DNA of 64,000 nt, from assembly GCF_003334315.1 (NCBI RefSeq), contig NZ_QOWR01000014.1; one strand, 5' to 3'. A program made the position numbers and the translations under genes. The notes beneath the pieces were generated by a model. It saw nothing but the letters and a program-made list of their open reading frames with translations, did no database searches and had not been told where the DNA came from. The DNA comes from Escherichia coli. GTDB taxonomy: Bacteria > Pseudomonadota > Gammaproteobacteria > Enterobacterales > Enterobacteriaceae. Below, piece after piece: positions 32,846-39,366 of this stretch (the first letter of the stretch is position 1; every line of letters begins with the position of its first letter).

Positions 32846-33304
32846 TTATAGAGACAAGTCCTGCAGTCGCTCCGATAAGTCTCCGGTAGCCAACTGCTCT
32901 GCGTCGATATCTTCCTTGACCTGTTGATGCCAGGTTGTTTCATCCCACAGCTCAAACTTGTTGAACTGTCCAACCAGCATCACTTCTTTTGTCAGCCCGG
33001 CATGTTGCCGCAGTACTGGCGCGATTAACAATCGACCTGCGCCATCCATCTGACATTCGCTGGCATGACCTAACAGTAGGCGCTGCACACGGCGCTCAAC
33101 CGGGTTCATGCTCGACAGACGCGATAATTTTTGCTCGATAATTTCCCATTCAGGCAGGGGGTAAAGCAGCAGGCACGGGTGATAAATGTCAATGGTGCAA
33201 ACCATTTGACCGGCAGCGTTCTCAAGCAGCTGTTCCCGATAACGGGTAGGCACTGATAAGCGCCCTTTGCTGTCGAGATTGACTAACGTTGCTCCCCGGA
33301 ACAT
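32846..33304 (-). CDS. mraZ: Transcriptional regulator MraZ, 152 aa
   Basis: ORF contains [35 protein letters not shown]...; ATG at 33302-33304 preceded by a Shine-Dalgarno-like aggggtgagg; first gene of the dcw cluster. Confidence 0.93.
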
Positions 33305-33323
33305 GCCAGCCTCACCCCTTATT

Positions 33324-33348
33324 CCCACTTTGCCCCACAATTTCCCAC
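33324..33348 (-). promoter_or_regulatory. Three GTGGG direct repeats at 10-bp spacing in the mraZ leader (MraZ operator, Pmra region)
   Basis: Plus strand shows cccac at 33324-33328, 33334-33338 and 33344-33348 (GTGGG on the gene strand), exactly one helical turn apart; matches the reported MraZ binding-repeat architecture. Confidence 0.7.
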
Positions 33349-33905
33349 TGAAAGGAGTTTACGGAGCTGAGGAAAAGCTTGTCAAGCCAGTCACAAGGCA
33401 TACCGAGGTAAAAAACCCGATGTTTACGGCTAATATCAGCGTTGTTTATTTTACGTCCAACGTGCGAAGCAAATTAACGTTATGAATAGCTGTAAGAAAA
33501 AATCCCTCATCGTCATCACTGTTTTAAAATGACTCACTATTTTCCACAGCAAATATAAAGTGTCAGTTTGCGACGCGAGCGGCATTTTAGGACATATCTT
33601 CCCCGGTTAACAGTCCTTGTTACGTCTGTGTGGCGCTTGATGCCAGCGGGTTTGCGCAAAAGCAAAGAAAAGTGTTTGTTAAATCGGCAATTCATCGCCG
33701 CATGTAACAAAATAATGCAAAAACGCGCTGTCGATATCACTTAATTATTGTGAATTTCAGCTGGTGAGTTAATTAACGGGCGGGTTTAAAAGCATTTATC
33801 AATAATAGTCAGGAATAGTCTTATTTACTTTAAGCATATTGATGTCCAGTCCCGTACTCTACGCGCCAGAGGGAAATTCACCTGGCGCGTATTTTTGTTC
33901 GCGGC

Positions 33906-34910
33906 TTAGCTACGGCTGAGCACGCCGCGGCGATAGAGATTACGTTTAATGCGCGTTAAACCAGGTTTTGGCTTACGCGGTTCGTCCAGGCTTGCCAGGA
34001 CAATCTCCAGCACACGCTCTGCGACATCGCGGTGACGTTGAGCCACTGCCAGCACCGGACACTGTAAGAAGTCGAGCAGTTCGTTATCGCCAAAGGTGGC
34101 AATTGCCAGGTCAGAAGGCAGTTTGCCGTCGCGACGCAGCGTGACATCCATCACTCCTTGCAACAACGCAAACGACGTTGTGAACAGCGCCTGCGGCATC
34201 GGATGCGTTTCCAGCCATTTTTCGAATAACTGGGCAGCCGCCTCCCGCTCATAGCTGTTGGCATACAGGAAATGCACTTCGCGCGGATCATCTTTCCAGG
34301 CAGTACGGAAACCTTGTTCACGCAGGAAGCTGACAGAAAGCTCCGGTAGCGCACCAAGATAAAGCACCGTCTCGGCGGGAAACTTACGTAACTCTTCCGC
34401 CAGCATTTCGGCATCATCCTGATCGGCACCAACCACGCTGGTGAAGTGTTCACGATCGAGGGCGCGGTCCAGCGCGACAATCGGGAACGGGTCGTTAGCC
34501 CAGCGTTGATAAAAAGGATGCTCAGGAGGCAACGACGTCGAAACAATAATGGCATCAACCTGACGCTGTAAAAGGTGCTCAATGCACCGCATTTCGTTGT
34601 CTGGCTGATCTTCTGAGCAGGCAATCAGCAGTTGATAACCCCGTTGCCGCGCCTGGCGTTCAAGATAGTTAGCGATGCGGGTATAGCTGGTGTTCTCCAG
34701 ATCGGGGATCACAAGACCAATAGAACGTGTGCGTCCAGCACGAAGCCCAGCTGCCACGGCGTTCGGGTGGTAATTGTGCTCACGCACCACAGCCATGACT
34801 TTTTCAACGGTTTTGTCGCTCACACGGTATTGCTTCGCTTTGCCGTTAATAACATAGCTTGCAGTGGTCCGCGACACTCCCGCCAGCCGAGCGATTTCAT
34901 CCAGTTTCAC
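33906..34910 (-). CDS. cra: Catabolite repressor/activator Cra (FruR), LacI family, 334 aa, GTG start
   Basis: Full-length ORF (V/M)[55 protein letters not shown]...; start codon reads GTG. Confidence 0.95.
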
Positions 34911-35034: not shown

Positions 35035-35068
35035 GCAAAAAAAGCCCAACGTGACATGTTGGGCTGTA
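35035..35068 (-). terminator. Rho-independent terminator downstream of ilvH
   Basis: Minus strand reads gcccaac-atgtcac-gttgggc followed by a 7-U run, about 20 nt past the ilvH stop. Confidence 0.75.
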
Positions 35069-39337: not shown

Positions 39338-39366
39338 AAACCCGCGCCATTGCGCGGGTTTTTTTA
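39338..39366 (+). terminator. leu attenuator (rho-independent terminator)
   Basis: aaaaaa-cccgcgc-cattg-cgcgggttttttt, GC stem plus T-run between leuL and leuA. Confidence 0.9.

Follow-up and report, generated by a model that had tools for sequence, protein, structure and literature searches.

A GC-rich hairpin with a T-run on the opposite strand, very probably the 3'-end stem-loop of the cra mRNA in Escherichia coli

We report that the GC-rich hairpin lying just downstream of cra (fruR) in Escherichia coli is very probably the stem-loop at the 3' end of the cra mRNA. Published tables already contain both this 3' end and the exact fold; in substance, then, the identification is known. The one thing not yet described, a minor point, is how the A/T run beside the stem is oriented in Escherichia. 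On present evidence, we view the T-run on the opposite strand as the complement of an A-rich, unstructured linker, that is, as a by-product and not as the reason for the hairpin. The importance of the result is small; the hairpin is an ordinary feature whose sole oddity is a T-run facing the opposite strand. It nevertheless fixes the end of the cra mRNA, leaves the 600-bp cra-mraZ spacer outside the stable cra message, and makes cra a clean case of a common E. coli situation, an mRNA that ends sharply at a U-less hairpin. For scans that use sequence only, it is a reminder that an antisense transcript should not be deduced from a wrong-strand T-run beside such a hairpin at a gene end.

The hairpin and the mapped 3' end of cra

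The stretch of DNA analysed here (the window, 64 kb) is K-12-like and corresponds to the reverse complement of the ilvI-ilvH-cra-mraZ-rsmH-ftsL-ftsI region of MG1655. MG1655 positions are obtained as 122938 minus the window position, a mapping that was verified, and across the spacer the two sequences differ by one mismatch in 604 bases. A 711-base query spanning the spacer was found in 5,424 of 5,426 complete E. coli genomes, with 99.9% identity to K-12. As originally predicted, cra (33906-34910; 334 aa, GTG start) and mraZ (start at 33304) both lie on the minus strand with a spacer of about 600 bp between them, measured here at 601 bp. The RefSeq annotation of MG1655 holds no feature in this interval, and a full-text literature search returned nothing specific on a cra/fruR terminator. 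At the far end of the spacer, and separate from the hairpin, lies the minus-strand promoter Pmra (TTGACA-18-TAAACT, 33349-33385, with its start at MG1655 89588-89590).

The hairpin occupies 33860-33891 on the minus strand (MG1655 89047-89078) and is defined by its sequence, its folding and the conservation of its pairs in Escherichia. Its stem begins 16 nt past the cra stop codon and is a perfect, GC-rich helix of 10 bp (tacgcgccag, 33860-33869, with ctggcgcgta, 33882-33891) that closes a 12-nt loop, agggaaattcac (33870-33881). The original prediction had described eight of these pairs, cgcgccag (33862-33869) with ctggcgcg (33882-33889), around the same 12-nt loop and followed by tattttt on the plus strand; all of this is present in the sequence, and two further pairs, T33860-A33891 and A33861-T33890, bring the stem to its full length. 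Past ctggcgcg, the plus strand continues as tatttttgtt (33890-33899), and the run TTTTTGTT is found on that strand only. Read in the direction of cra, the order is AACAAAAATA-hairpin-TAGAGTACGG (in an alternative extent, AACAAAAAUA-hairpin-UAGAGUACGG), which bears out the earlier statement that the minus-strand side has no U-run. The linker from the cra stop to the stem (33892-33905, minus strand) is A-rich, GCCGCGAACAAAAA in the sense direction, and it is this linker that reads as TTTTTGTT on the plus strand.

Folded as RNA, the hairpin reaches -20.1 kcal/mol on the plus strand and -18.8 kcal/mol on the minus strand (z-scores -5.1 and -4.7), and none of 200 shuffles folded as stably. The entire window was scanned for GC-rich stems of 8 perfect pairs whose loop measured 3-12 nt and whose 8-nt tail held 5 T or more; this yielded 17 nested hits, which fall at about seven distinct places, versus 0.6 +/- 0.7 per dinucleotide shuffle, so that T-tailed hairpins of this type are enriched about ten-fold over shuffles; a terminator scan limited to loops of 3-8 nt missed the cra hairpin solely for its 12-nt loop. 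The other window hairpins with T tails include recognisable terminators, such as the canonical hairpin plus T-run after ilvH (35043-35065, minus strand), which contrasts with the U-less cra hairpin, and a canonical hairpin plus T-run at 39338-39361 (both strands) that resembles the leu leader attenuator. In an Rfam 15 search of 33100-34100 at E <= 10, the only match was to sR084, at 15 bits (gathering score 95; E = 6.5).

Two published maps place steady-state cra 3' ends at 33857/33856 (MG1655 89081/89082; PMC10687069, Supplementary Data 2-4, and PMC6131387), 3-4 nt beyond a stem whose last base is MG1655 89078. In the RNAtag-seq/TRS data of Bar et al. (PMC10687069), a terminus on the MG1655 plus strand has its peak at 89076-89087 and its dominant position at 89081 or 89082. 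It is labelled 'Primary' for cra, and the exact hairpin is printed as its fold (-19.3 kcal/mol, maximum U-tract 1); adjusted p values reach 1e-24 in three libraries that belong to one data set, and the terminus is seen again in other data sets. SMRT-Cappable-seq, which captures whole primary transcripts, lists a transcript from a start at MG1655 87968 (34970 in the window) to an end at 89082, covering b0080 (cra) only and flagged 'novelTTS' (PMC6131387). The row for this monocistronic transcript holds the values 94 / 20 / 6 / 24 / 119, which we read, with column meanings inferred from the text of that paper, as 20 reads ending at the site versus 24 reading through, with a median extension of 119 nt. 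The Term-seq tables of Adams et al. (2021) hold no 3' end on either strand between 83641 and 89783 and neither confirm nor contradict the site. Precise cra 3' ends at the hairpin were, next to a lack of plus-strand transcription across the spacer, one of the two observations by which the original prediction proposed to reject a plus-strand role, and both the TRS and the SMRT-Cappable-seq maps contain them.

A longer outer helix (CCGCG.AAC / GTACGGG) was considered for the mature RNA and rejected, as the mapped 3' end falls inside it and it is absent in E. albertii. The seven bases past the stem, GAGTACG in the sense direction (33850-33859, alignment columns 50-56), include the mapped cra 3' end and are invariant in eight Escherichia sequences whose linker and loop vary; this could mark a processing or pause determinant, or could merely reflect short divergence. 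In E. coli 23CRST031 (locus L083), the mraZ-side foot of the hairpin (about window position 33859) is the exact insertion point of an IS1 element, which leaves hairpin, T-run and cra undamaged. In strain 4/4, the spacer match is likewise split between two places.

Conservation of the hairpin and of its strand

For comparison, 80 loci were fetched from Enterobacteriaceae, one per species, giving 81 with the window. A GC-rich hairpin is present shortly 3' of the cra stop in all 81. Its sequence is unrelated between genera, and conservation over the hairpin is low across 19 genera, while the structure is kept; this is the pattern expected of selection at the RNA level. With a T-rich tail defined as 6 or more T among the 10 nt past the core stem, a U-rich tail on the sense side was found at 22 of 81 loci, six of which also have an A-rich upstream flank. 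Textbook terminators in the sense of cra occur in Atlantibacter, Kosakonia, Franconibacter, Phytobacter, Cedecea and others, for example AAAGGCAGC-NNNN-GCTGCCTTTTTT. By count, 54 of the 81 loci have neither tail nor A-rich flank, so that the hairpin of cra is usually U-less. These 54 include Escherichia sp. L002, for which the automatic parse failed; its linker, GAACAAAACGA, is A-rich as in other Escherichia.

An A-rich upstream flank alone, the arrangement that looks like an antisense terminator, was found at five of 81 loci: the window, three other Escherichia and one Enterobacter sp. Outside Escherichia, the reverse orientation thus stands alone at a single locus out of 76, and in these sequences it appears to be essentially an Escherichia trait.

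Which strand is maintained as RNA can be judged from the best hairpin picked independently on each strand within 125 nt past the cra stop. Where the two differed by more than 1 kcal/mol, the cra strand was favoured at 50 loci and the opposite strand at nine (Wilcoxon p = 1.6e-8 for strand stability, a value that overstates independence, the loci being phylogenetically related). G.U pairs in the stems numbered 132 on the cra strand versus 70 on the opposite strand.

Substitutions within Escherichia can be followed pair by pair. There, pairing is retained in 95% of stem cells, and changes on both sides are seen in two pairs. One C-G pair (alignment columns 24/43) has become U.G on the cra strand in E. 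albertii and, separately, in E. coli S1bESBLb; the variant keeps the cra-strand stem and places a C.A mismatch in the plus-strand stem. The E. albertii hairpin folds at -18.9 kcal/mol on the cra strand versus -9.9 kcal/mol on the plus strand. Within E. coli, the stem is kept and the loop is variable (AGGG, AGTG, AGAG).

In the linker, AAAA (alignment columns 13-16) is the same in all of eight Escherichia sequences, which represent four species-level lineages, and the remaining linker varies. The T-run is polymorphic within E. coli, TATTTTT versus TACTTTT. A haplotype family that includes the type strain ATCC 11775 accounts for 438 exact and 1,282 near-exact matches among complete genomes, and the sequences read from it have TACTTTT for TATTTTT, which shortens the plus-strand U-run to CUUUUGUU. 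The A-run upstream of the stem may do no more than prevent folding of the 16 nt that separate the stem from the terminating ribosome, or it may be under selection as the U-tract of the other strand.

Formation of the cra 3' end

The cra hairpin shares with canonical intrinsic terminators a GC-rich stem-loop directly downstream of the stop (10 bp, -18.8 kcal/mol, z -4.7), and on the plus strand the hairpin followed by UUUUUGUU fits their consensus. It is unlike them in that the cra strand, the one known to be transcribed, lacks a U-tract, whereas the strand that has one is without a recorded transcript end. Past the stem, the cra-strand tail UAGAGUACGG has two U in 10 nt, where a canonical terminator has a U-tract of about 7-9 nt. 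Without a U-tract on its sense side and with a 12-nt loop, the hairpin should support canonical intrinsic release only poorly.

We therefore lean towards a model in which cra transcription ends in the spacer, probably by Rho, and the RNA is then trimmed back to the stem. Transcripts from the cra promoter (MG1655 87968) would reach the hairpin and, there being no sense U-tract, would seldom be released in canonical fashion. Some polymerases would continue into the G-poor, AT-rich spacer and be terminated there, most likely by Rho. Exonucleases working 3' to 5' would subsequently trim the cra RNA as far as the stem, which would protect the message and set its sharp end. A candidate zone for Rho loading and termination is the G-poor, AT-rich stretch at 33708-33848 (minus strand); 78-nt windows starting 58-118 nt past the cra stop have C/G ratios of 1.4-1.9 at about 12% G, a signal that is mild and not specific. 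Together with the read-through in the SMRT-Cappable-seq row (columns read as above), these ratios agree with a stop in the spacer and subsequent trimming.

Our observations are consistent with a class of E. coli 3' ends described by Dar & Sorek in 2018 (PMC6061677), in which Rho-terminated transcripts have precise 3' ends just past stable, U-less stem-loops. In that study, C is mildly enriched over G beyond such ends, the stems guard against PNPase and RNase II, and no association is seen between Rho-dependent 3' stem-loops and A-tracts upstream of them. The cra site is alike in having a stable stem-loop directly upstream of a precise end, no U-rich tail, a mild downstream excess of C over G, and a folding energy near that of intrinsic terminators. 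It is unlike the class in its 12-nt loop and in the A-rich tract upstream of the stem, from which the class average is free; the conserved AAAA(A) at this place is a misfit that counts against our preferred explanation. By its sequence and 3'-end features, the cra hairpin fits the protective class, whose defining dependence on Rho and exonucleases is here putative.

A less probable account, which we hold only tentatively, is that the hairpin acts as a weak, non-canonical intrinsic terminator for cra, releasing part of the polymerases directly 3-4 nt past the stem without a U-tract, possibly aided by NusA or NusG, while the others read through. The sharpness of the 3' end so close to a stem of -19 kcal/mol agrees with such release, as does the share of reads reaching the site that end there (about 45%, from 20 vs 24, column meanings again inferred), and canonical terminators at the orthologous position in other genera suggest that the Escherichia version may be a decayed one. 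Against it, two T in the 10 nt past the stem and a loop of 12 nt are both unfavourable, and the 54 of 81 loci that lack a T-rich tail on either side indicate that being U-less is usual for cra. Nor does the sharp end favour direct release, for trimming predicts an identical steady-state pattern: the same 3' ends are expected from partial termination at the hairpin and from downstream termination with trimming.

In light of these data, the earlier description of the hairpin as a bidirectional or imperfect cra terminator can be divided. 'Imperfect cra terminator' holds, given the 3' ends 3-4 nt past the stem and the canonical equivalents in other genera; 'bidirectional' does not, the U-tract being on one side only and no convergent gene being present. 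The bidirectional terminators that serve convergent genes (Ju et al. 2019; Wang et al., bioRxiv 10.1101/2022.10.23.513370) resemble the cra site in having a hairpin readable on both strands and an A-tract on one side that serves the opposite strand as a U-tract; in the mog/satP pair of the TRS table (PMC10687069), for instance, the mog end is U-less with an A-run before it. They differ from it in that cra and mraZ are co-oriented, with no convergent gene or known transcript, and in that the cra hairpin is T-rich on one flank only. Neither convergent units nor two-sided A/U tracts are thus found here.

The opposite strand and the cra-mraZ spacer

That the hairpin might stop a plus-strand, antisense or divergent transcript was the other suggestion of the original prediction. 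In this account, the Escherichia hairpin is mainly or additionally a reverse intrinsic terminator that stops plus-strand transcripts from the spacer and shields cra from antisense RNA or polymerase collisions. The plus strand does have every sequence feature needed, a 10-bp GC-rich stem-loop of -20.1 kcal/mol followed by a U-tract, UUUUUGUU; the eight Escherichia sequences all keep the A-run from which this tail is read, while other linker bases vary; and the spacer is AT-rich, at 38-44% GC. Spurious promoters are common in DNA of such composition.

No transcript with a 3' end in that U-tract was found, however. Neither the four position-sorted TRS lists nor the SMRT-Cappable-seq tables have an opposite-strand 3' end at MG1655 89039-89046. 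The TRS lists have no MG1655 minus-strand terminus anywhere in 88192-89779, a range in which weak transcripts may fall under the calling thresholds, and the SMRT-Cappable-seq tables have no entry at 8903x or 8904x and, as sole start in the spacer, Pmra at 89588/89589. At the scan threshold, no promoter-like site was found on the plus strand of the spacer (33305-33860). Two plus-strand open reading frames there, 33568-33744 and 33267-33485 (58 and 72 aa, both with TTG starts), were rejected as genes, since in other Escherichia, in Citrobacter and in Salmonella they are interrupted by a stop or a frameshift.

The variation described above points the same way. E. albertii and E. coli S1bESBLb carry the C.A mismatch that weakens the plus-strand stem, a large E. 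coli haplotype family is typified by the T-run cut to CUUUUGUU, and such an orientation stands alone at only one of 76 loci outside Escherichia; a loop of 12 nt is also long for efficient termination. We consider reverse termination rather improbable, and the suggested stop for a plus-strand transcript finds no counterpart in 3' ends, promoter-like sites or conserved reading frames.

The two roles could also be combined. In Escherichia, the ancestral cra terminator would then have acquired a conserved upstream A-run and no longer have its sense U-tract, and its stem-loop would both cap a Rho-terminated cra mRNA and insulate cra from antisense transcription starting in the AT-rich, 600-bp region upstream of dcw. 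This combination seems to us unlikely, and any part in reverse termination, itself doubtful, would be an additional role only. Were reverse termination real, it would provide a small case of insulation against antisense transcription and no new principle.

A chance palindrome, or a DNA-level site (a protein operator or cruciform) with no function as RNA, is very hard to credit, even if a perfect palindrome can also be read as a dyad-symmetric DNA site: enrichment over shuffles sets the hairpin apart from chance, structure is kept between genera despite sequence change and with compensatory and G.U substitutions, an RNA 3' end maps to the hairpin foot, and the lack of similarity to any Rfam family is likewise listed against it.

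The spacer itself contains features that are distinct from the hairpin. Four blocks are almost invariant across 19 Enterobacteriaceae genera and far better conserved than the cra hairpin: 33550-33595 (MG1655 89343-89388), 33438-33472, 33672-33693 and 33782-33793. The first, TATGTCCTAAAATGCCGCTCGCGTCGCAAACTGACACTTTATATTTGC, is 46 nt long and lies far upstream of Pmra. The blocks have no Rfam match and no annotation.

Sense transcription is also visible within the spacer. In the MG1655 plus-strand part of the Cappable-seq table, three weak starts on the sense strand fall at 33795, 33701 and 33578 (MG1655 89143, 89237 and 89360), in addition to Pmra at 89590, and TRS has a sense-strand 3' end at MG1655 89480 (window 33458), annotated 'IGR'. 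The part of the spacer that precedes Pmra thus appears to give rise to short sense transcripts that also end there.

Between Pmra and the mraZ start, the minus strand carries three very highly conserved direct repeats, GTGGGAAATT-GTGGGGCAAA-GTGGGAATAA (33309-33345), which are probably the operator repeats of MraZ.
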